A stretch of 54,028 nt of DNA from an uncultured Bdellovibrionales bacterium (GTDB lineage: Bacteria; Patescibacteriota; Minisyncoccia; Moranbacterales; UBA2206): contig CAYTIK010000001.1 of NCBI GenBank assembly GCA_964438025.1, forward strand, positions 47,557 through 101,584. Direction: 5' to 3'. The number at the start of each line of letters is the position of its first letter. Position 1 is the first letter of the stretch. Positions 2,690-52,382 of the stretch are shown piece by piece. Both the position numbers and the translations under genes were made by a program. The notes beneath the pieces are model-generated. The model searched no databases. It had not been told where the DNA came from and worked only from the letters and a program-made list of their open reading frames with translations.

Positions 2690-2779
2690 TGTCAATTGCC
2701 ATTTCATCCCATCAACTGGCCCCGGATATTTCTTGTTCGGGGCTTATTTTATTTCTCCGTTTTATTATGCAAAGCTTCA

Positions 2780-3071
2780 CCCCGCACTAATTTTTATTTA
2801 AAGATTTTTTTATTCTTTTTTTCAATTGAGCAAGCGCTTGGCCATGCTGTTTTATTTGTTTTTCTTTTTCCCATGCATCTTCTTCTGCAAAATAAGCTTC
2901 GTAATAAACAAGCTTCCATTTGTGATTTTTTGTATATAAAGAATGGCTATCATTATGTTGAAAAAATCTTTTTTTAAATCACTCGTACAGCCATAATATA
3001 ATTCGTTTTTTTCATTTTTTAGCACATAGAAGTAATGCATACGAATTAAAATAATAAAAGTTAGTGCGGGG
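2780..3071 (-). mobile_element. TIR-bounded GIY-YIG mini-element, copy 1 (ORF frameshifted)
   Basis: Arms CCCCGCACTAATTTTT (2780-2795) and AAAAGTTAGTGCGGGG (3056-3071) are 15/16 complementary. Same architecture and size (292 bp) as 37624-37914. Confidence 0.7.
2787..3040 (-). pseudogene. GIY-YIG (YhbQ/UPF0213-like) nuclease gene, interrupted by a 1-nt frameshift in an A7 run
   Basis: MHYFYVLKNEKNELYYGCTSDLKK continues in another frame as RFFQHNDSHSLYTKNHKWKLVYYEAYFAEEDAWEKEKQIKQHGQALAQLKKRIKKSLNKN*. The shift is at A7 (plus-strand T7, 2969-2975). About 65% identical by eye to the intact paralog at 37631-37885. Confidence 0.7.
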
Positions 3072-3112
3072 CAAGCTGTCCACAAGCGCCTTGGATATCA
3101 TTGCCAAAGCTT
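3061..3112 (-). pseudogene. Relic of an rlmN-like 3' end fused to the element arm
   Basis: Encodes KSFGNDIQGACGQLAPH*. The resident rlmN ends KSLGTDIQGACGQLTSGK* (5199-5255). The last codons and stop lie inside the TIR. Confidence 0.55.
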
Positions 3113-7006: not shown

Positions 7007-7036
7007 GGGGGCAGGATCGTCAGACGACCTGCCCGC
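7007..7036 (-). terminator. Rho-independent terminator after the 7045-7437 gene
   Basis: GGGGGCAGG...CCTGCCC stem followed by a T-run on the minus strand. Shares the 11-mer TTGCGGGCAGG with the 36-nt hairpin family. Confidence 0.6.
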
Positions 7037-20035: not shown

Positions 20036-20472
20036 TTAATTAGATAAATTATTTTTTAACTCTTGTAATTGCCTCAATACACTACTATCCAAAATTTCAT
20101 CTCCGACTCGAATAATGATTCCGCCCTTGACTTTTTCATCAATAATATTATGCAAAATCACTTCCTTAGCCTGACCCGCCTGCTTTGCTACGCGAAGCGT
20201 TGCAGACAGGTATTTTTCTTTGATATATTTACTTACCTTATTACGTAATTCAGTATGTAATTCTTCATGGCTAGTAATCTCCGCTTCCACAATGCCTTTC
20301 TCTTGATTCCAGATTTCACCAAATTTTTATAAATTTTTGGAACTAACTTTAGTTGCCTATTTTTTTGCAAAATTTTCGTTAAATTTAAAACAGCCTCGCC
20401 AATTTCTTTTTGACTCTTATCTACAGTCGCTGCGTATAAACTTTTGGCGTATTGATTGACGGTAATCTTCAT
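20036..20472 (-). CDS. atpH: F1 ATP synthase delta subunit, split into two frames at an A5T3 run
   Basis: ORFs 20233-20472 and 20036-20290 together make a delta subunit (...[13 protein letters not shown]...[16 protein letters not shown]). The frames meet at plus-strand aaattttt, 20321-20328. Confidence 0.7.
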
Positions 20473-22787: not shown

Positions 22788-22852
22788 CCCCGCACTAACT
22801 TTTTACCTTTTTTATTTTTTGCGCTTTGGCGCAGTAAAAAGTTAGTGCGGGG
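22788..22852. mobile_element. ORF-less 65-bp derivative of the GIY-YIG element (TIRs only)
   Basis: CCCCGCACTAACTTTTT (22788-22804) and AAAAAGTTAGTGCGGGG (22836-22852) are 17/17 complementary. The 31-nt loop has its own TGCGC-tttg-GCGCA hairpin. Confidence 0.75.
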
Positions 22853-36242: not shown

Positions 36243-36316
36243 TGGTGGACTTAGCGAGAATCGAACTCGCGTCTCCGCAATGCGAATGCGGCGTGCTACC
36301 ACTATACCATAAGCCC
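36243..36316 (-). tRNA. tRNA-Ala (anticodon CGC), CCA encoded
   Basis: GGGCTTA TG GTAT AGTGGTA GCAC G CCGCA TTCGCAT TGCGG AGAC GCGAG TTCGATT CTCGC TAAGTCC ACCA. G3.U70 is present. Confidence 0.9.
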
Positions 36317-36350: not shown

Positions 36351-36395
36351 CGTCTGCCTGCTGGCAGGCAGGTTATACCACTAGACCATGGGCCC
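36351..36395 (-). tRNA. 5' portion of a tRNA-Ala-like gene (acceptor 5' strand, D-arm, aberrant palindromic anticodon-arm substitute)
   Basis: GGGCCCA TG GTCT AGTGGTA TAAC C, then the 18-nt palindrome CTGCCTGCCAGCAGGCAG. Only 4-, 6- or 8-nt loops are possible. No T-arm follows. Confidence 0.55.
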
Positions 36396-37623: not shown

Positions 37624-37914
37624 CCCCGCGCTAACTTTCGTTCAAAGATTTTTTGATTCTTTTTCGCAGTTGCGCCCAGGCTTGTCCGAATTGTTTAATT
37701 TGTTTTTCCCTCTCTTCAGCATCCTCTTTTGAAAGATAAGCTTCGCAATAAATAAGTTTCCATTTATGATTTTTCGTAGAAAAAGAATTGCCATTGTTAT
37801 GCTCAAAAAATCTTTTTTTTAGATTATTAGTATAGCCATAATACAATTTCTGGATTTCATTTTTAATCACGTAAAAATAATACATATAGAATAATAACGA
37901 AAGTTAGTGCGGGA
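37624..37914 (-). mobile_element. TIR-bounded GIY-YIG mini-element, intact copy
   Basis: Arms CCCCGCGCTAACTTTCGTT (37624-37642) and AACGAAAGTTAGTGCGGGA (37896-37914) are 17/19 complementary. 291 bp in total. Confidence 0.75.
37631..37885 (-). CDS. GIY-YIG nuclease family protein (YhbQ/UPF0213-like, 84 aa)
   Basis: YFYVIKN...LYYGYTNNLKKRFFEHN...CEAYLSKEDAEEREKQIK (GIY / YIG / R / E pattern). Confidence 0.85.
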   Translation of the reverse strand: MYYFYVIKNEIQKLYYGYTNNLKKRFFEHNNGNSFSTKNHKWKLIYCEAYLSKEDAEEREKQIKQFGQAWAQLRKRIKKSLNES

Positions 37915-39052
37915 CTCTTAATTTTTTCATCAAATCCAGATAAAATTTCAGATTATGGAGAGAAGCCAAGCGCATCGCCAACGGTTCTTTGGCCGCAAAT
38001 AGATGGTGCAAATAAGCCCGGCTGTAATTCCGGCACAATTCACAGGTGCAATTTCTATCTACCGGCTTAAAGTCTTTCTTAAATTTTTTATTATTGATAT
38101 TTAGCGTTTCGTAAAAATTTCCAGAAAGTGCTTTCTTTTTCCAAAGAAAAAGCCGTCCATGACGTCCCTCGCGCGTGGGAATCACACAATCAAACATATC
38201 CCAGCCGTAGGAAACCGCACGGACAATGTCTTCCGGCGTGCCAATGCCCAGCGCAAACTTAAGTTTGTCATCCGGAATAAAGCTGGCAGTTTTTTGCAAA
38301 ACTTCGGCCAAAAAATTACCTTCGCCATCCACATGGCGAGCGCCAAAGCCGTAGCCATCCCAGCCTACGGCTGGTCCGTCCGCTCCCTGGCGGACGGAAG
38401 AACCAATTTTAATCAGTTCTTCCACACATTTTTTCCTTAAGTCTAAATATTCGCCTCCTTGAATAACACAAAAAATTAACGGCCTATCCGCTTTTTTTAT
38501 TTTTCTAACTTTCAACTGCTTTTTATACTCAATCATACAACGCTCCGCCCAAATAATCGTCCGCTCCACCGCTTGCCTGATTTTTTCTTTGCTAAAGTCG
38601 TTAGGCGGTGGATCATCCAGGCACACCAGCATATCCACTCCCAAATCAAATTGAATTTGAATTGATTTTTCCGGAGTTAACTCATGATGGGAACCATCCA
38701 GCGGCGAACGGAAAACAACTTTCTGGTCCGTAATTTTTCCCACCTGCGGATTTTTGTGAATCAAAGAGAAAACCTGGTAGCCGCCGCTATCGGAAAGCAA
38801 CGGTTTCTGCCATTGCATAAATCGATGTACGCCTCCCGCTTTTTTGATAATTTCTATTCCCGGTTGGAGATATAAATGATACGTGTTAACCACCATCGGA
38901 CCAATATTAATATCTTCCAAGTCTTTTTGGCTCAAGGATTTGACAAATCCTCGCGTCGCATCCGGCATAAAAAACGGAGTTTTAATTACTCCGCTTTTAG
39001 TTTCCAATCGGCCTTGGCGATTTTTTTTTCCTGCTAGTTTAAACATGCGCAA
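37904..39052 (-). CDS. tgt: Queuine tRNA-ribosyltransferase
   Basis: TPFFMPDATRG, SDSGGYQVFSL, zinc site CTCELC...H. Confidence 0.93.
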   Translation of the reverse strand: MRMFKLAGKKNRQGRLETKSGVIKTPFFMPDATRGFVKSLSQKDLEDINIGPMVVNTYHLYLQPGIEIIKKAGGVHRFMQWQKPLLSDSGGYQVFSLIHKNPQVGKITDQKVVFRSPLDGSHHELTPEKSIQIQFDLGVDMLVCLDDPPPNDFSKEKIRQAVERTIIWAERCMIEYKKQLKVRKIKKADRPLIFCVIQGGEYLDLRKKCVEELIKIGSSVRQGADGPAVGWDGYGFGARHVDGEGNFLAEVLQKTASFIPDDKLKFALGIGTPEDIVRAVSYGWDMFDCVIPTREGRHGRLFLWKKKALSGNFYETLNINNKKFKKDFKPVDRNCTCELCRNYSRAYLHHLFAAKEPLAMRLASLHNLKFYLDLMKKLRVPH

Positions 39053-42464: not shown

Positions 42465-45400
42465 TTAGTCTTTTTTTATCTGCAATTTTATTTTTTCTCC
42501 GTCGATGACGGATTCCTTTTCCAGATCTGCGTTTTCAATATTTTCTGATTTTAGCTCGTTGGCCAAAATCTCCTTAGCAATAATATCGCCGAATTTTTCA
42601 AAGACCTGCGACATTCCAGAATAGCTGACAATTATGCGATTGTCAACTTCATAACCCGCTTCCTTGCGCATTTCCTGGATGAAGCGGATAATTTCGCGGG
42701 CTTGGCCTTCGAGTTTTAGTTCTGGAGTAATTTTGGTATCCAGTTCGATTTCTTTAAATTTTTTATCTTGAATAACTTTTTTAACATTCACTTCTTCTTG
42801 GATGATTTTCAAAAATTCCTTGCTTAATTCCTGACTCATAATTCTTAATTCCGCTAAGGGTTGGCGCACTTTTATACCATTTTTGGCTCTAAGCTGCAGC
42901 GCTACCGTAATAATATTCCTGGTTTCCGCCATTTTGTTATTTAATTTTTCATCAATCAGTTTTTCATCCGCTTTGGGAAAATCGGTCAGATGCACGGACC
43001 CGCCTGCATCGCTATGCGAAGCATTGCGGGCAGGTTCTTCACCGGTTAGATTTTTATAGATTTCTTCCGCAATAAATGGCGTAAACGGTGCCATCAGCTT
43101 GGCCAGTTCTGTTAATACCGTCCAAAGTGTCTGATAAGCATTTTCTTTATCGGCGTCGTCTTCCGATTTCCAAAATCGCTTACGGCTGCGGCGGATATAC
43201 CAATTAGAAAGATTATCAACAAATAACTCGAATGGTTTGGTTGATTTTACCAAATCATAACCTTGCATGCTTTCATCCACTTTTTTTATCAATTTATGCA
43301 GTTCGGAAATAATCCATTTATCTAATAAGTTTTTAGTTGGTGCTTGGTGGTTAATAGTCTTTAACGGTTCCCACTTATCCACACCGGCATACAGAACAAA
43401 GAAGGAATAACTATTCCACAAAGTCGCCAAGACTTTTCTTTGAATATCCTGAATCGGTTTTTCGGAAAAATTAATATTCTGCGCATCCAGCAGCGGCGAG
43501 GATAAAAAATAAAAACGTAAGGCATCGGCGCTATATTTTTCCAAGACAACATCTGGCAAGGTGTAATTTCCCAGTGATTTAGACATTTTTTTGCCATCTG
43601 ATCCGGCAATAGTCCCTGTCGTCACAACATTTTTGAAACTTTCTTTGCCGAATATCCCTACGGAAACAACATGCAGCACGTAGAACCAAGCTCTGGTTTG
43701 CGCGATATATTCGGAAATAAAATCAGTTGGAAAACTTTTTTCAAATTTTTCCTTATTCTCAAAAGGATAATGAAATTGGGCGAAAGGCATTGAGCCGGAC
43801 TCAATCCAGGAATCAAAAACTTGCGGAATTCTTTTCATAACTCCTCCGCATTTACAAGCAAATGAAATATTATCTACCCCCGGCCGATGATAATCTTCCA
43901 GTTCTACTCCGGAAACTTCCTTCAGCTCCGCGTATGATCCAAAAACTTTAATCTCTTGGCAATTTTCCCTATCGCATTTCCAAACCGGAATGGCTGTCCC
44001 AAAATAGCGATCACGAGAAATATTCCAATCCGGCGCGCTTTCAATTCCGTTCTGAAAACGACCGTGTTTGAGAAAATCCGGAAACCAACTAATATTTTCA
44101 TTCTGAGCGATTAAATCTGGCCGCATTTTAGCAATGTTTACATACCAAGCCGGTTGTGCCTTATAAATCAATTTTGTATGACACCGGTGGCAATGCGGGT
44201 AACTATGCGTTATTTGTTCTCGTTTAAAAAGTATCTTGTATTCTTTTAGCCAAGCTACAATTTTATCATTGGCATCCCAAACTTTTTGTCCCTGCCATTT
44301 GCCTTCCGTAAGTTTTCCCTCATCATCTACATTCATAATAATTGGCAAATCGTCAGTTTTTCTGGCATTAAAGTCATCTTCTCCGAAAGCTGGCGCAATA
44401 TGCACAATCCCCGTTCCGTCTTCAGTTGTTACGAAATTAGCTACGATAACTTTGTAAGCATTTTCTTCAAGCTTATCATGTAATTCAATATTTTTGACAA
44501 CATCTTTAGATCTTTTTTTAAAATTATTATCTTCTTTAATAGCAAATACTGATTCCTTATTTTCCTTTAAATCTATATTTTTAAGTGACGGAATAAACAT
44601 CCCTGCCTTAATATTATTTTGATAATAATCAAATATTGGCTCATATTTTTTACCCATTAAATCTTTACCTTTAAATTCTGCTTCAACTTTATATTCTTTA
44701 CCGGCAAAAACTTCTTCAACCCTATCTTTGGCTAAAATATAATAATCTTCTCCGCAAATAATTTTAACGTAATTAATTTCTCCGCCTACCGCCAAAGCCA
44801 CGTTAGCTAAAAGCGTCCAAGGCGTCGTCGTCCAAACGAGAAAATAAGCATTCTCTTCGCCTCTAATTTTCATTTTCACATATACCGACGGATCGCTGTC
44901 CATTTCATAACTATTATCCATCGCAATTTCAAAATTTGATAATGGCGTTGAACAGCGTGGGCAATAAAGTGAAACGCGCACATCTTCATAAATCAAACCT
45001 TTTTTAAACAATTCCGAAAATGCCCACCAAACCGATTCCATATAACCTTTATCCATGGTCTTGTAGGCATTTTTAAATTCCACCCAGCGGCCGATGCGAT
45101 CAATAATATCTTCCCATTCGCTGGCAATTTGGGAAGTCTCAGAGAGGCAAGCTTCATTGAACTTGGCAATTCCGATTTTTTCCTCAATTTCTTTTTTGCT
45201 CTTGATCCCCAATTTTTTTTCCACCATATTTTCCGCCGGCAGACCATGGCAATCCCATCCCCAGCGCCGTTCTATTCGGTAACCTTTCATAGCCCAATAT
45301 CTCGGCACAGTATCTTTAACAATGGAAGAAAGCAAGGTTCCATAATGCGGCACCCCTGTAATAAAGGGTGGGCCATCATAAAAGCTGTAATATTTATCTT

Positions 45401-45509
45401 TGCTTCTTTGCTCAATCGACTTTTCAAAAGTTTTGTCTTCTTTCCAAAATTCGATTACCTCTTTTTCCATTTCGGAATATTTTTTTCGCGCGTCGACTTT
45501 TTTAAACAT
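42465..45509 (-). CDS. ileS: Isoleucine--tRNA ligase (type 2 / eukaryote-like)
   Basis: PHYGTL (HIGH variant), KMSKSLGN, CP1 editing domain; 1014 aa. Confidence 0.95.
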   Translation of the reverse strand: MFKKVDARKKYSEMEKEVIEFWKEDKTFEKSIEQRSKDKYYSFYDGPPFITGVPHYGTLLSSIVKDTVPRYWAMKGYRIERRWGWDCHGLPAENMVEKKLGIKSKKEIEEKIGIAKFNEACLSETSQIASEWEDIIDRIGRWVEFKNAYKTMDKGYMESVWWAFSELFKKGLIYEDVRVSLYCPRCSTPLSNFEIAMDNSYEMDSDPSVYVKMKIRGEENAYFLVWTTTPWTLLANVALAVGGEINYVKIICGEDYYILAKDRVEEVFAGKEYKVEAEFKGKDLMGKKYEPIFDYYQNNIKAGMFIPSLKNIDLKENKESVFAIKEDNNFKKRSKDVVKNIELHDKLEENAYKVIVANFVTTEDGTGIVHIAPAFGEDDFNARKTDDLPIIMNVDDEGKLTEGKWQGQKVWDANDKIVAWLKEYKILFKREQITHSYPHCHRCHTKLIYKAQPAWYVNIAKMRPDLIAQNENISWFPDFLKHGRFQNGIESAPDWNISRDRYFGTAIPVWKCDRENCQEIKVFGSYAELKEVSGVELEDYHRPGVDNISFACKCGGVMKRIPQVFDSWIESGSMPFAQFHYPFENKEKFEKSFPTDFISEYIAQTRAWFYVLHVVSVGIFGKESFKNVVTTGTIAGSDGKKMSKSLGNYTLPDVVLEKYSADALRFYFLSSPLLDAQNINFSEKPIQDIQRKVLATLWNSYSFFVLYAGVDKWEPLKTINHQAPTKNLLDKWIISELHKLIKKVDESMQGYDLVKSTKPFELFVDNLSNWYIRRSRKRFWKSEDDADKENAYQTLWTVLTELAKLMAPFTPFIAEEIYKNLTGEEPARNASHSDAGGSVHLTDFPKADEKLIDEKLNNKMAETRNIITVALQLRAKNGIKVRQPLAELRIMSQELSKEFLKIIQEEVNVKKVIQDKKFKEIELDTKITPELKLEGQAREIIRFIQEMRKEAGYEVDNRIIVSYSGMSQVFEKFGDIIAKEILANELKSENIENADLEKESVIDGEKIKLQIKKD
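42999..43034. repeat. 36-nt GC-rich hairpin element, in frame in ileS
   Basis: Plus strand CCCGCCTGCATCGCTATGCGAAGCATTGCGGGCAGG. On the coding strand it encodes PARNASHSDAGG just before SVHLTDFP. Confidence 0.85.
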
Positions 45510-45939
45510 AAATTTTAATTGAAATTAATAATAAAATTATGGTAAAAACTATTTCTGTCTTGGAAAAAATTGGCAACCAGCCTTTAATTTTTATTTTTAA
45601 GGGATAAAAATATTGCTTTTCATCTTTATCCGGAAAATCCAAAGCTAAATGCAACATATAGCCTGAAAAAAAATAAATACCCCCGGAAAAACTTATAACA
45701 AAAACGATTAGGGACAACAGTAATCCTCCTAAAATAGAATGCCCGTATTTTGTTTTATACCTGATACCGTATTTTTCTTCGTTCACTACGCTATCTACTA
45801 ATTTATTTATAGAAAATAATTTATTTTTAAAAATAATGAAAATATGATCAATGTCAGGAATTACCGAACCCAGAAACCAGAACCAGGAAAAATGATTTTC
45901 AGCAGGAAGTGTTCCGATTATAATGTGCGCCAATATCAT
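45502..45939 (-). CDS. DUF457/YdjM-like membrane-bound hydrolase, co-transcribed with ileS
   Basis: Overlaps the ileS start by 8 nt. Hydrophobic; IPDIDH and LHLALDFPD motifs. Confidence 0.5.
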   Translation of the reverse strand: MILAHIIIGTLPAENHFSWFWFLGSVIPDIDHIFIIFKNKLFSINKLVDSVVNEEKYGIRYKTKYGHSILGGLLLSLIVFVISFSGGIYFFSGYMLHLALDFPDKDEKQYFYPLKIKIKGWLPIFSKTEIVFTIILLLISIKIYV

Positions 45940-45940
45940 A

Positions 45941-46155
45941 AAATAAAAAACATCCTTAAAGTCATATAAGGACGCTTCCGCGTGGTACCACCTTAATTTT
46001 CCCGTCAGTCGTGACTGACAGGACTCAATTTTGGCTATTACGGGCCCTGCCCGCAGTTGCTACGCATAAGCGTTGCAGGCGGGCTAACCGGCGAGATCTA
46101 CTCATCAATAAAGATTTTCTTCTCGCAGCTCCGAGGTGATAGCCTCATCATCGCT
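45941..46155 (-). promoter_or_regulatory. T-box riboswitch leader (Ile) with terminator/antiterminator
   Basis: Minus strand reads AAAAUUAAGGUGGUACCACGCGG (45978-46000). Antiterminator: UAAGG / 7-nt bulge UGGUACC / ACGC-GGAA-GCGU / CCUUA. Competing terminator CGUCCUUA...UAAGGAUG plus a U-run (45941-45974). The 5' end carries a GAUGAUGA K-turn-like motif. Confidence 0.8.
46046..46083. repeat. 38-nt member of the GC-rich hairpin family, embedded in the T-box leader
   Basis: Plus strand CCTGCCCGCAGTTGCTACGCATAAGCGTTGCAGGCGGG. Both 10-nt ends are identical to the ileS copy. Confidence 0.8.
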
Positions 46156-46185
46156 TTTATATGATTTAACTATAAATTAAACCCG

Positions 46186-48405: not shown

Positions 48406-50139
48406 TTACATTTTTTCTGGTGCAGATACGCCCATAAGCCTCAATGTTTCCGCCAACACTATTTTAACAGCATTTATGAGCTTTAGTCTAGAGCGGGAAA
48501 CTGCCAAATTATCCTCATCGATAACTTTCAAATCGTTGTAAAAAGAATGGAATTTATCAGCCAATTTTATGGCGTAATGAGGCAGTTTATGCACCGTATA
48601 ATCCTGAACTATTTCTTCCACTAATTCCGGAAATTTATGTAATTCTTTAACCAAGCTTAGCTCTTTTTCCTCCGCAATTTTAGCATAATCCGCTTGGGAA
48701 AAATCCAGATTTTTTTCTTGCGCTTTGCGCAAGATGCTGCAGATCCGCGCGTGCGCGTATTGCACGTAGGGACCGGTTGCGCCTTCCAATTTTATTGATT
48801 CATCAATGTCGAATTCTATTCTGGTTCGACTGGAAACTTTCAGCAAGGAAAAGCGGATAGCTCCCAGCGCGATCTCTTCAGGGTGTGGAGATTCGGGAAA
48901 TTTCTGCTTGATTTTTTCTATTACTTCCGCAATAAGTTTCTTGGCCGGAATAACATTACCTTTACGAGAAGACATACTTTCTCCATCTTTCAAAGAAACA
49001 AACTCATACGCCACATGAATCAAATTTTTTTTAAATCCTAAAAGTTCCAGGATTTTGAATATTTGCTTGAAATATAATTCTTGCCGGACATCAGCCACAA
49101 TAATGCTTTTACCAATTTTATATTCACTAAATTTCTTTTGCGCCAATGGCAAATCTTTCAGCCCATATAAAATACTACCGTCTTTTCTTACTAAAACAAT
49201 CACTCCCAAATTATATTCTTCCAGATTGGCAATAATTGCGCCCTCGCTTTTTTCAATATGCGCTTTACCTAAAAGTTCCGGCAGAATTTTCTTTCCGGCT
49301 TGTTCTTCTTCGCTTTCGTAAAAATAAACATCAAATTTTACCCCTAATCCTTCGTAAATGGCCTTGAATTCATCCAAACTCCATTGGCGCGTTTTTTGCC
49401 AGAGAGCAACTAGCTCAATATCCCCTCCTTCAAGTCTTTTTTGTACCAGTTTGAATTCTTCCTGATTTTGCGGATCAGCTTCTATTTTTTGCACCGCTTC
49501 CGAATAAATTTTTCCCAAAAATTCTGTTTTATTTTCTCTGGCGTCTAAATTTTCCTCTGGATGGAATTTTTCCAATGCCCACAGACATTTGGCAATGTGC
49601 GTTCCGGTATCTCCGATATAATTGGCCGCCATGACTTCGTTGCCATTTTTTCTCAAAACATTAACTAAAGCATCGCCGATAAAAACATTCCGCAGATGGC
49701 CGATGTGAAATTCTTTATGCGTATTGGGCTGGGAATATTCAATCATCACTTTTTCTTTTTTCTTTTCTAAACTTCCCCAATCGTTTCCTCGCTGATTAAT
49801 TTCTTCGATTTTTTCTTGAAAATATTCCGGTTTTAAATAAAAATTCAAATAACCTGGCGCTGCTACTTCGATTTTCTCCAAACTTAACTTTACGGAGTTC
49901 GACTCCAAATCGGAGTCGAACTCCGTTTTCAGCGTTGTTTTTAATGTTTCCGCAATTTCTAATGGTTTTTTTCCGACTTTTTTGGCTAAAAGCATGGCAA
50001 TATTGCTGGCATAATCTCCAAATTTCTCCTCACTGGGATAATCCACCTGAATCTCTTCCAATGTAAAATCCGGCCAAGCTTTAGCCTTTTGTAGAGCCTT
50101 AACCGCTTCCGTTAAAATTTTTTGGATTTCCTCTTTCAT
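48406..50139 (-). CDS. argS: Arginine--tRNA ligase
   Basis: SQPNTHKEFHIGHLRN (HIGH) and the C-terminal DALR anticodon-binding domain. Start moved to MKEEIQKIL. Confidence 0.93.
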   Translation of the reverse strand: MKEEIQKILTEAVKALQKAKAWPDFTLEEIQVDYPSEEKFGDYASNIAMLLAKKVGKKPLEIAETLKTTLKTEFDSDLESNSVKLSLEKIEVAAPGYLNFYLKPEYFQEKIEEINQRGNDWGSLEKKKEKVMIEYSQPNTHKEFHIGHLRNVFIGDALVNVLRKNGNEVMAANYIGDTGTHIAKCLWALEKFHPEENLDARENKTEFLGKIYSEAVQKIEADPQNQEEFKLVQKRLEGGDIELVALWQKTRQWSLDEFKAIYEGLGVKFDVYFYESEEEQAGKKILPELLGKAHIEKSEGAIIANLEEYNLGVIVLVRKDGSILYGLKDLPLAQKKFSEYKIGKSIIVADVRQELYFKQIFKILELLGFKKNLIHVAYEFVSLKDGESMSSRKGNVIPAKKLIAEVIEKIKQKFPESPHPEEIALGAIRFSLLKVSSRTRIEFDIDESIKLEGATGPYVQYAHARICSILRKAQEKNLDFSQADYAKIAEEKELSLVKELHKFPELVEEIVQDYTVHKLPHYAIKLADKFHSFYNDLKVIDEDNLAVSRSRLKLINAVKIVLAETLRLMGVSAPEKM

Positions 50140-50613
50140 GGCTTCATCATACCGCAAAAAGCAAAAAAAGTAAAAATAATCAAATAATTTAAACTCTAAA
50201 TCTATCCGATTCTTCATCTCTCGCTACTTCATTTAATTACCCTCTATCTTCCTTTTCTCATCTTAAAATTACGACACACTTTCAGCCTAGGCTAAAATTG
50301 TGTAGTAATATTTTTTGAGTAATATGCACTGTTATGCTAAGAATTGCAATAAGATCCTGCCCTACTAGACAGGATATTAAGAATCGAGGATTTTTAGTTA
50401 AAAACTGCTCAGCCTACTGACGGAAAAGTTTCTAAAAATTACCGAGAATTTAAAATTCTAAAGCTCTAACTTGCCTACCTCACCGGCAGATGGGCGGAAC
50501 CGAAAAACAAACTCGTGGGCAACATACCATCTGCTGTCGGACCTGGCGCCGTGGCCACTTCGGGAGTGTTGTGCAGGTCGTATTTTTGTTTGAGGAAGTT
50601 AGGGTTTTCCATA

Positions 50614-51329: not shown

Positions 51330-51884
51330 ATGACTACCGTAGCCACTAATAAAAGAGCCCATTTCGACTATCTCATCTCGGATAAATATGAGGCGGGTTT
51401 GGTTTTGACTGGCCAGGAGGTAAAATCAGTTAGAGCGGGACATATTAGCCTTAAAGAAAGCTTCGTCACCATCAAAGAATCTGAATTATTTTTAACCAAC
51501 GCCCATATCTCTTTTTACAAGCAAGCGGGTGAGATAAAAAGCTATAATCCGACCCGCCCGCGCAAGCTGCTCCTCAAAAAATCGGAAATCAAGCATTTAA
51601 TCGGAAAATTAAGGTTGCTTGGCTTGACACTCGTCCCTCTTCGCGTGTATACTAAAAAGCGTCCTGCCCGCAATGTTTCGCCTTTAAATAAGAACTTTTT
51701 TAACAAAACACTTGGTTCTAATTCAAAAAAAGAGTACTATCCAGAAAGTAAACATAGCGATGCAGGCGGGCTACTGAAGCTCGAATTCGGTATCGGCAAA
51801 GGAAAAAATAAGTTTGATAAACGGGAAGATCTGAAGAAGAAAGATGCGGATCGAGATATGCGGAGAGCTTTAAAAAATTACTAA
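51330..51884 (+). CDS. smpB: SsrA-binding protein SmpB carrying a 36-aa insertion
   Basis: NKRAHFDYLI...EAGLVLTGQEVKS...LLLKKSEI...LTLVPLRVY...KGKNKFDKRED. Start moved to MTTVATNK. Confidence 0.92.
   Translation: MTTVATNKRAHFDYLISDKYEAGLVLTGQEVKSVRAGHISLKESFVTIKESELFLTNAHISFYKQAGEIKSYNPTRPRKLLLKKSEIKHLIGKLRLLGLTLVPLRVYTKKRPARNVSPLNKNFFNKTLGSNSKKEYYPESKHSDAGGLLKLEFGIGKGKNKFDKREDLKKKDADRDMRRALKNY
51663..51770. repeat. GC-rich hairpin element with a nested 72-nt AT-rich insert, in frame in smpB
   Basis: CCTGCCCGCAATGTTTCGC + 72 nt + ATAGCGATGCAGGCGGG. The ends match the 36-nt ileS copy (reverse complement) at 35/36. Confidence 0.85.
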
Positions 51885-51922: not shown

Positions 51923-51958
51923 CCCGCCCGCATCGCTACGCGAAGCGTGGCGGGCGGG
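51923..51958. repeat. 36-nt GC-rich hairpin element abutting the tmRNA 5' end
   Basis: CCCGCCCGCATCGCTACGCGAAGCGTGGCGGGCGGG, 31/36 identical to the ileS copy. Confidence 0.85.
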
Positions 51959-52371
51959 GGTTGTTAAGTTTCGACAATTTGTACTTTCCAAACAAGCAAG
52001 CCGAGGATGATAATAGCTCGCTAAACCTTTATCAAAAGTTATAAGTGCCAACTTCATAACTAAAGCAAAATCGGTATTAGCTAACGCTTTTACCGCAAAT
52101 TTTGCCCTAGCCTTAGCCTAACCGCTTCCAAGCGGAGTTAAGGTTCATCGAATTGCCGATTTCTCATAGGCAAACCTCGGTGTCATATATGAGGATAGTC
52201 AAATAAGGCGTTCTAAACTTTTTTGGCGAAGCTAAATTTAGAAATAGATTGAGAAGGTTTTGTCCGCTTTCCACTTCCTAATCGAAGCTCGCAAGGCTTT
52301 AAAGCTGAATACGCTTGTAGAATGTTTTGAAAGAATAAATTTGGACGCGAGTGCAATTCTCGCCAACTCCA
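51957..52371 (+). ncRNA. ssrA: tmRNA (SsrA)
   Basis: 5' GGGGUUG...UUCGAC. 3' T-arm GCGAG-UGCAAUU-CUCGC and acceptor CAACUCC-A, giving a 7-bp stem with G3.U70. Tag ORF ends ...ANAFTANFALALA-UAA (52065-52121). Lies directly after smpB. Confidence 0.88.
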
Positions 52372-52382
52372 CTAATCATTAA

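Follow-up and report, generated by a model that had tools for sequence, protein, structure and literature searches.

What a GC-rich hairpin of 36 nt is doing, in frame, in the isoleucyl-tRNA synthetase gene (ileS) of an AT-rich bacterial genome, and how it came to be there, is the question raised by a 54,028-nt stretch of contig CAYTIK010000001.1 (assembly GCA_964438025.1), which was analyzed over its whole length and is referred to here as the window. The hairpin occupies 42999-43034 on the minus strand, where a first-pass annotation made from the letters alone had read its sequence, open reading frame (ORF) and translation correctly, and it is probably one copy of a selfish, translated insertion element, palindromic and non-autonomous, that is mobilized in trans. 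The host ORF (42465-45509, minus strand; 1014 aa) encodes isoleucyl-tRNA synthetase (IleRS), being matched by solved IleRS chains at E ~1e-215 and by thousands of orthologs, and an exact-protein look-up of the product returned no match; judging from its IleRS relatives, the host is a member of the Moranbacteria (Patescibacteria). The plus strand of the window at the element is cccgcctgcatcgctatgcgaagcattgcgggcagg, the reverse complement of which, CCTGCCCGCAATGCTTCGCATAGCGATGCAGGCGGG, is the 36-mer of the ileS coding strand and the canonical variant (v1) of the family; the direction in which it is read there is called orientation A. It forms codons 826-837 of the gene, the translation running ...NLTGEE-PARNASHSDAGG-SVHLTDFP, with ...GEEPARNASHSDAGGSVHL... 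as the string spanning the insert in ileS/smpB. The element has a GC content of 67% in a window of 33-47% GC per 2 kb, the 9-nt segments at its two ends form a stem that includes one G.U and one C.A, and its RNA fold reaches -19 kcal/mol (z=-3.2, RNAfold). Since shuffles gave an expectation of 0.00 occurrences of the element pattern, and the ileS copy scores 65.3 bits (E=7e-13) with the family covariance model, a chance origin is excluded.

Five copies lie in the window, three of them coding (ileS, smpB and atpH) and the others 5' of the transfer-messenger RNA (tmRNA) gene and inside a T-box leader. They are dispersed at 3-23 kb from one another, three on the minus and two on the plus strand, with no chromosome-strand bias. 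Repeat finding, pattern search and the covariance model (filters off) concur on the four copies of 36-38 nt; the smpB copy, whose 18-nt halves are separated by 72 AT-rich bases, was missed by the covariance model. The first-pass annotation had named four of the five, all real, and passed over the one in atpH; it gave the frame and peptide ends of the smpB copy correctly but not its long form, and did not register that the two copies at RNA genes are antisense to those RNAs.

In smpB (51330-51884, plus strand; ATG 51330 fits 184-aa orthologs, the mechanical ORF start being TTG 51294) the element takes a 108-nt long form (51663-51770, plus strand) consisting of a left arm (51663-51680), an AT-rich core (51681-51752) and a right arm (51753-51770), that is, 18 + 72 + 18 nt. 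It stands in frame, in orientation A and in the same frame as in ileS (PARNASHSDAGG), reads PARNVS, 24 residues and HSDAGG, and adds 36 residues to the turn between the last two beta strands; solved SmpB chains are continuous where window SmpB carries 35-36 extra residues. The atpH copy (20175-20210, minus strand) is a 36-nt, v2-like sequence with six differences from canonical v1, again in orientation A and in frame, here the second frame, the next one relative to the PARNASHSDAGG frame; in its product, 81 residues align with Pfam OSCP positions 104-172, an excess of 12 over the profile. The gene itself (ATP synthase delta/OSCP; 20036-20472, minus strand) is split into two overlapping ORFs (20233-20472 and 20036-20290) by a frameshift in an A/T-rich run near 20290-20310. 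The split may come from an assembly error, mark a pseudogene or be a case of recoding.

The copy at 51923-51958 (minus strand) belongs to variant v2, has a perfect 9-bp outer stem and adjoins the 5' end of the tmRNA gene (51957-52374, plus strand; Rfam), so placed that its last two G residues are tmRNA positions +1 and +2. ARAGORN missed the tmRNA both here and in another hairpin-bearing locus (L089), where Rfam finds it at 129 and 84 bits, respectively. The remaining copy (46046-46083, plus strand) has 38 nt and is v3-like with two 1-nt insertions; it sits in the Stem III apical loop of a T-box leader (45965-46160, minus strand; 57.9 bits, E=4e-12, local search) upstream of a ydjM-like ORF and ileS, and 41 nt replace the 3-nt apical loop. 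Stem I of this leader (window 45502-46160, minus strand) is very short, 6 nt vs 76 in the model. The ydjM-like membrane protein gene that follows the T-box overlaps the start of ileS; in the syntenic contig L126, introduced below, the T-box directly precedes ileS.

Comparison with relatives gives the difference the polarity of an insertion. In 118 of 120 IleRS orthologs the site reads NLTGEE|SVHL or holds other inserts; the 12 residues occur only in the window protein and in one ortholog (P0012), which also has the DNA repeat. The closest ortholog (P0001, 82% identity), encoded on L126, reads GAAGA|GTCAGTGCAT at the site with exactly 36 nt fewer, so that precisely 12 codons have been added in the window, as the first-pass annotation had held. 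All four sites that can be compared in L126, the closest syntenic relative, are empty: besides ileS, smpB reads KKR|LIKLEF, no hairpin precedes the tmRNA, and T-box Stem III is CGGG-TCGG-CCCG; the covariance model found no copy on this contig (22.8 kb). A nearer relative, L174 (SmpB 84%; 15.7 kb), shares the smpB long form alone among the copies comparable there, which indicates that the smpB insertion is older and the others younger. Sites have also been used more than once, as a v3 copy lies at the identical nucleotide of ileS in an ortholog of 70% identity, the site being unoccupied in closer orthologs, and the tmRNA +1 junction holds a hairpin at the same place in L089. No target-site duplication is seen between the filled and empty ileS sites, and no repeat in 106 flank pairs; flank complementarity, as a sign of insertion into pre-existing palindromes in general, does not exceed that of shuffled flanks. 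The flanks do show a preference that is symmetric about the dyad, with a depletion of T at -1 (0.07) matched by one of A at +1 (0.08).

An AlphaFold model of IleRS (from 41 sequences, mean pLDDT 77) places residues 825-836 in a coil of pLDDT <50 between helix 811-822 and the SVHL segment, and the insert is accordingly predicted to form a disordered surface loop. Among solved IleRS chains, 8c8u has a 13-residue gap at the insert site and in 1ile the loop is 6 residues shorter than in the window protein. The same NLTGEE|SVHL loop carries other, unrelated GC-rich insert families in further orthologs (P0003, P0011, P0041, P0045, P0099, P0104, P0113 and P0118 among others), with peptides such as SPTSPQSSPQAGEE, CHSGLDPES...RGND, ETHCNASL and PSPLQGEG; the loop acts as a hot spot for insertions, and several hairpin families reside in such genomes. 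In one locus (L011) the 36-mer is nested within the loop of another insert family. IleRS of the window has a second insert, AT-rich and of ~51 residues, in the editing region (residues 297-348; window ~44465-44620, minus strand), which is missing from the closest ortholog, partly predicted to be disordered (pLDDT <50) and devoid of hairpin arms.

The family extends well beyond the window, and the expectation of the first-pass annotation that more copies exist fell short of the scale, since the spread crosses phyla with near-invariant sequence. Scanning GTDB species genomes with the right half of the element, GCRTAGCRAWGCRGGCGGG, gave at least 119 loci, ~100 of which also have the left half, nearly invariant even though its 17 nt lay outside the search pattern; the remaining matches are chance hits in GC-rich genomes. 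Public metagenome-assembled genomes (MAGs) hold >100 copies, and the exact ileS 36-mer is present in at least 29 loci, from MAGs labeled Saccharibacteria, Nomurabacteria, Daviesbacteria, Staskawiczbacteria, Moranbacteria and Parcubacteria as well as Verrucomicrobia/Verrucomicrobiales, Kiritimatiellia and 'Gammaproteobacteria' (labels unverified). The family is also found in MAGs labeled Margulisiibacteriota and 'Bdellovibrionales'. Only six IMG/VR contigs contain it, and neither main variant has a match among PLSDB plasmids and INPHARED phages. Rfam has no family for it at gathering score, with noise only at E up to 10. Literature searches by DNA strings, peptides and descriptive terms, subscription journals lying outside their coverage, found no description, and the element has apparently not been described so far.

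Three main subfamilies are distinguished, v1 (CCTGCCCGCAATGCTTCGCATAGCGATGCAGGCGGG), v2 (CCCGCCCGCAACGCTTCGCGTAGCGATGCGGGCGGG) and v3 (...GCTACGCATAGCGTTGC...), which differ by paired changes. Among 53 distinct sequences, the stem 11-14/18-21 is paired at 97.2% (12:20 is UA in 27 and CG in 22; 11:21 is AU in 42 and UA in 6) and the overlapping stem 16-19/23-26 at 96.7% (16:26 is UA in 42 and AU in 9; 17:25 is CG in 42, UG in 5 and UA in 2), values matched by no shuffle or slid register. The 9-nt outer arms, which are terminal inverted repeats, form standard pairs at 87.6%; the outer 9-bp stem keeps U.G at 3:34 and, in 32 of the 53, C.A at 7:30, whereas v2 pairs perfectly. Two overlapping inner 4-bp stems are therefore maintained by compensatory changes, and because they mirror each other about the dyad the same architecture is presented by each strand; as the paired changes define few subfamilies, the independent events behind them are few. 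Selection on the fold had been suspected from the ileS and pre-tmRNA copies, where the listed changes (ATGC/GCAT to ACGC/GCGT, T3 to C and A30 to G) are right and A10 to C has to be added; the suspicion holds family-wide, with 12:20, 11:21 and the stem 16-19/23-26 changing on both sides. No T-run follows the element in its flanks, so it is not an intrinsic terminator, and three of the window copies lie inside ORFs. A CRISPR repeat was considered and rejected, the copies being dispersed and Rfam CRISPR-DR20 scoring 12.5 bits against a gathering score of 42.

How such an element can persist in genes is suggested by its coding behavior. Among the matches listed, 72 of 116 fall in ORFs of at least 150 codons, ~40% of copies being non-coding, and 51 of these 72 are in orientation A, frame 0. 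When only genomes with a GC content of 50% or less are counted, for which ORF calls are reliable, 36 copies in ORFs are in orientation A vs 3 in orientation B; in non-coding DNA the corresponding figures are 7 and 3. All real coding inserts are multiples of three (36, 54, 72, 105 and 108 nt), while versions of 35, 38, 45, 46 and 52 nt are non-coding only. The element is free of stops in five of six frames, orientation B being open in all three, and the stop-containing frame is never used. The retained frame, PARNASHSDAGG, is rich in Pro, Gly, Ser, Asp and Asn; the other frames are hydrophobic or rich in Cys and Arg, for which reason a bias of this kind in orientation and frame would be expected if purifying selection favored a harmless loop.

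That bias might instead mean that the peptide PARNASHSDAGG is the selected unit, a functional module for recognition, cleavage or modification grafted onto many proteins, and it is indeed very strong for a sequence whose orientation B is open throughout. We consider this very improbable, given that some 40% of copies are non-coding, that atpH and others use another frame, that the host proteins are unrelated and the insert predicted to be disordered, and that old copies lose the motif. It is scarcely credible that the RNA loses the hairpin by a process akin to intron excision, or that ribosomes pass over it by a translational bypass of the byp type, leaving the proteins without the 12 residues. 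A stable GC-rich hairpin in an AT-rich mRNA would suit such a process, as would copies within tRNA-like sequences, in which an insert that stayed in place would be lethal; but every real coding insert keeps the host frame open, lengths that would break it occur only outside ORFs, decayed copies still evolve as in-frame codons, and the hairpin-bearing tRNA sequences are redundant fragments beside an intact tRNA. The idea that hairpins interrupt functional tRNAs was rejected in its own right, as in-silico excision followed by ARAGORN gave a tRNA for one locus only (L075).

Copies are also altered from within and with age. Exactly at the dyad centre (18|18) are found second copies, smaller palindromes of 9-18 nt, a related 33-nt hairpin or an AT-rich core of ~70 nt. 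A long-form pattern matched 15 metagenome loci, 13 with a long form of 105-108 nt and the other two with nested or neighboring copies; the AGTACT motif is common to most cores, and the long form, which makes up a family in itself, is in frame in some genes and contains stops in copies in intergenic DNA. In many lineages the SmpB turn is occupied by a version of the element, whether long, short or decayed (PARNAIFLNK...HNVAGG, PVRNVSQAKRSDTGG, PASTRGDGSSTRGG and PASPAGG), and old smpB copies such as the last two have decayed with the frame kept. Decay of older copies, together with empty sites in intermediate relatives, is a signature of selfish DNA rather than of host function.

Another reading is that of a structured RNA or DNA motif beneficial to the host and retained by it (for instance a hairpin for stabilizing or processing mRNA, a site at which ribosomes pause, or one bound by a conserved nucleoid or partition protein), insertion being only its route of arrival. 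Arms that are nearly invariant across phyla, two inner stems kept by compensatory change and copies in or beside structured RNAs would all be understandable on such grounds, and in smpB the arms of L174 differ from those of the window at 1 of 36 positions, compared with ~12% in core and flanks, although the sites are too few for this contrast to be significant. We nevertheless regard it as decidedly unlikely, since the same essential genes lack copies in the closest relatives, older smpB copies have decayed to unrecognizable peptides, both orientations occur in non-coding DNA and RNA genes, and the sequence has neither the T-run of a terminator nor an Rfam match.

Taken as a selfish, trans-mobilized insertion element, the 36-mer would spread as DNA, insert without target duplication and persist only where the host tolerates it. 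Coding copies would be tolerated for their length in multiples of three, their lack of stops in five of six frames and the disordered surface loop encoded by the retained frame; those in RNA genes would be tolerated at the tip of a helix, as in T-box Stem III, or, as at tmRNA -1, immediately beyond the mature RNA. Mobilization in trans, by an enzyme that would recognize the folded form (hairpin or cruciform) and would itself be horizontally mobile, is suggested by the identical architecture on both strands, the symmetric flank preference and the near invariance of the arms across phyla.

No recurrent transposase family was found in 8-kb neighborhoods of hairpin loci, where the gene family met with most often is that of a small GIY-YIG nuclease (12 of 126 sequences). 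Nine of the 12 GIY-YIG ORFs have a hairpin at a distance of ~100 nt or less, in each case together with a tRNA fragment or tmRNA, a frequency far from chance as only ~6% is expected for a random position in an 8-kb locus by our own arithmetic. In five loci (L020, tRNA-Glu; L024, L054, L084 and L102, tRNA-Gln) a redundant tRNA fragment with the hairpin in its D or T arm is followed by the GIY-YIG ORF and then the intact tRNA. Two tRNA-Val loci (L012 and L021) are the mirror image, with the intact tRNA first and the hairpin-interrupted fragment after the GIY-YIG ORF, whereas in L075 (tRNA-Val) a hairpin-interrupted full-length tRNA precedes the ORF and an intact tRNA follows it. L089 has the order smpB, GIY-YIG, hairpin, tmRNA. 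These loci belong to different lineages, and L119 is probably a further one that combines a hairpin-interrupted tRNA fragment, a GIY-YIG ORF and an intact tRNA.

The window has a gene for a small GIY-YIG nuclease of its own (37631-37885, minus strand), which can be put forward as a possible trans-acting partner only, its linkage to hairpins being seen in other genomes and not here. It belongs to a cassette (37625-37913, minus strand) inserted between TGT and mgsA and missing in L126, with a GC-rich terminal inverted repeat (CCCGCACTAACTTT / AAAGTTAGCGCGGG) that differs from the 36-mer. A decayed second copy with the same terminal repeat lies at 2770-3097 (minus strand), an ORF-less hairpin of the cassette repeat at 22788-22852 between atpB and tatD, and homologs of the window nuclease in four other genomes have the same flanks.

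Structure-specific small GIY-YIG nucleases are the only candidate mobilizing enzymes for which there is any evidence here. A functional link between nuclease and hairpin is possible, if on the doubtful side; the adjacency may have no further meaning than that an element with a preference for hairpin-prone DNA can land safely in redundant tRNA fragments. More specifically, and with correspondingly greater hesitation, the hairpin and a horizontally mobile, Slx1/YhbQ-like GIY-YIG nuclease might constitute a two-part mobile system of an undescribed kind. Hairpin-prone DNA, whether in the D and T arms of tRNA, at the tips of other palindromes or at the dyad centre of the element, would be cut by the nuclease; copying or ligation would then place the folded 36-mer in the break, and no target duplication would result. 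Such a system would explain nesting at 18|18, the symmetric flank rule, conservation of the arms across phyla and the recurring order of tRNA fragment, hairpin, GIY-YIG ORF and intact tRNA. A different relationship, in which the hairpins are by-products (scars or landing sites) of small GIY-YIG homing-endonuclease cassettes, draws on the same adjacency, for which the setting is in every case either a duplicated tRNA fragment or tmRNA +1, and on the window cassettes with their own terminal repeat and ORF-less mini version. It is unlikely, because >90% of hairpin loci have no GIY-YIG gene nearby and because precise, identical boundaries in many unrelated contexts fit a discrete element better than a repair scar; the landing-place argument applies here as well.

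Several observations count against a selfish element moved in trans, some of them bearing on its possible nuclease partner. Pfam scans of the window detected no gene for a transposase, recombinase, or HUH or Y1 enzyme; none of its five copies is next to a GIY-YIG gene; and at four independent loci with close homologs of the window nuclease, picked without reference to the hairpin, none has one, which tells equally against the hairpins as GIY-YIG by-products. An empty ileS allele of the same strain was sought in metagenomes and not found, so that no presence/absence polymorphism is seen within the population. Arms that are near-identical across phyla are unusual for a passively decaying parasite and could mean a host-level function; conservation of the right half is overestimated, as the search pattern fixed it in most collected copies; and several taxon labels of the MAGs ('Bdellovibrionales', 'Gammaproteobacteria') are unverified.

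Other features of the window were separated from the family. A GC-rich stretch in TGT (38348-38404) was rejected as a copy, scoring 8.8 bits and being largely conserved in L126. TGT of L126 (16722-17885) has an 11-residue insert, LSLLRRGSKGE, that is missing from window TGT and is probably another small element. The hairpins at 7009-7036 and 36352-36373, downstream of minus-strand genes, were likewise rejected as family members and look like intrinsic terminators, the first with a T-run directly after it on the transcribed strand and the second with one a few bases further on. ARAGORN found a tRNA-Ala at 36243-36316. The ArgRS gene (48406-50217, minus strand) looks mosaic, its product matching the L126 and L174 orthologs at the N and C termini and having a catalytic core of another type, with a HIGH-region sequence unlike theirs.

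Among known systems, the palindromic elements of Rickettsia (RPE) offer the closest likeness in behavior, and the first-pass annotation was apt in describing an invasion of coding and non-coding RNA genes of their kind. Ogata and colleagues reportedly observed in 2000 that RPE use one preferred reading frame, with the peptide on the protein surface, and that one copy lies in the tmRNA gene. RPE are repeats of 100-150 bp, intergenic and coding, including a tRNA synthetase gene, that arose in lineage-specific bursts (PMC1779305). The present family resembles them as an interspersed palindromic repeat, intergenic and in frame in essential genes including those of aminoacyl-tRNA synthetases, with lineage-specific proliferation. 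It differs in that its main form has 36 nt, the long form alone reaching 105-108 nt, in its nesting at its own centre and in its dual inner stems; and whereas RPE are confined to Rickettsiales, it occurs with near-identical sequence in MAGs of Patescibacteria, Verrucomicrobiota, Kiritimatiellia and Margulisiibacteriota; the likeness meant is one of behavior.

REP and REPIN sequences are extragenic and species-specific, with a conserved GTAG head, and are found next to a RAYT gene (IS200/IS605-type Y1). They too are imperfect GC-rich palindromes of 20-40 nt, highly repeated, without target duplication and presumably recognized as a folded single strand. The 36-mer in contrast has over half of its copies in ORFs (72/116 among the matches listed), is shared across phyla, carries GTAG/ATAG internally and has no Y1/RAYT gene in the window. 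Elements of the miniature inverted-repeat transposable class (MITEs) such as Correia, Nezha and enterobacterial RU/ERIC are similarly short, non-autonomous, bounded by terminal inverted repeats and at times intragenic and translated (PMC2759123; PMC3184786); the 36-nt element is shorter than known MITEs, and neither the target-site duplication that MITEs make nor the ends that they have in common with a parent insertion sequence are seen here. Palindrome-associated elements derived from IS200/IS605 lie 3' of a fixed tetra- or pentanucleotide, whereas here no flank is conserved.

Further afield, GC clusters and palindromic mini-elements of fungal mitochondria are GC-rich hairpins in an AT-rich genome, sometimes in frame and often beside free-standing or intronic endonuclease ORFs, including GIY-YIG ones. 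The scatter of GC-rich, sometimes in-frame hairpins is common to both, whereas the mitochondrial elements are organellar and species-specific; we know of no sequence relation between them. In Magnusiomyces mitochondria, byp elements are likewise short GC-rich hairpins inserted in protein-coding genes, but they disrupt the reading frame and the ribosome skips them; members of the family described here invariably preserve the frame, and their decayed copies go on evolving as codons. Related accounts of fungal mitochondrial palindromic mini-elements have been published (PMC7218506; PMC6140425).

If the 36-mer is indeed a selfish element mobilized in trans, it would rank among the smallest mobile elements known in bacteria and would be the first found in both the candidate phyla radiation and Verrucomicrobiota-type lineages with almost every base in common. 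Dozens of essential proteins, among them aminoacyl-tRNA synthetases, SmpB and an ATP synthase subunit, receive the same 12 residues from it, which makes the family relevant to annotation, alignment, phylogeny and structure prediction for uncultured bacteria. It would show how reduced genomes acquire new surface loops and conveniently mark horizontal exchange of episymbiotic lineages with free-living ones. The near-invariant arms would imply a conserved and mobile recognition machinery, the discovery of which could reveal a new mode of moving DNA.

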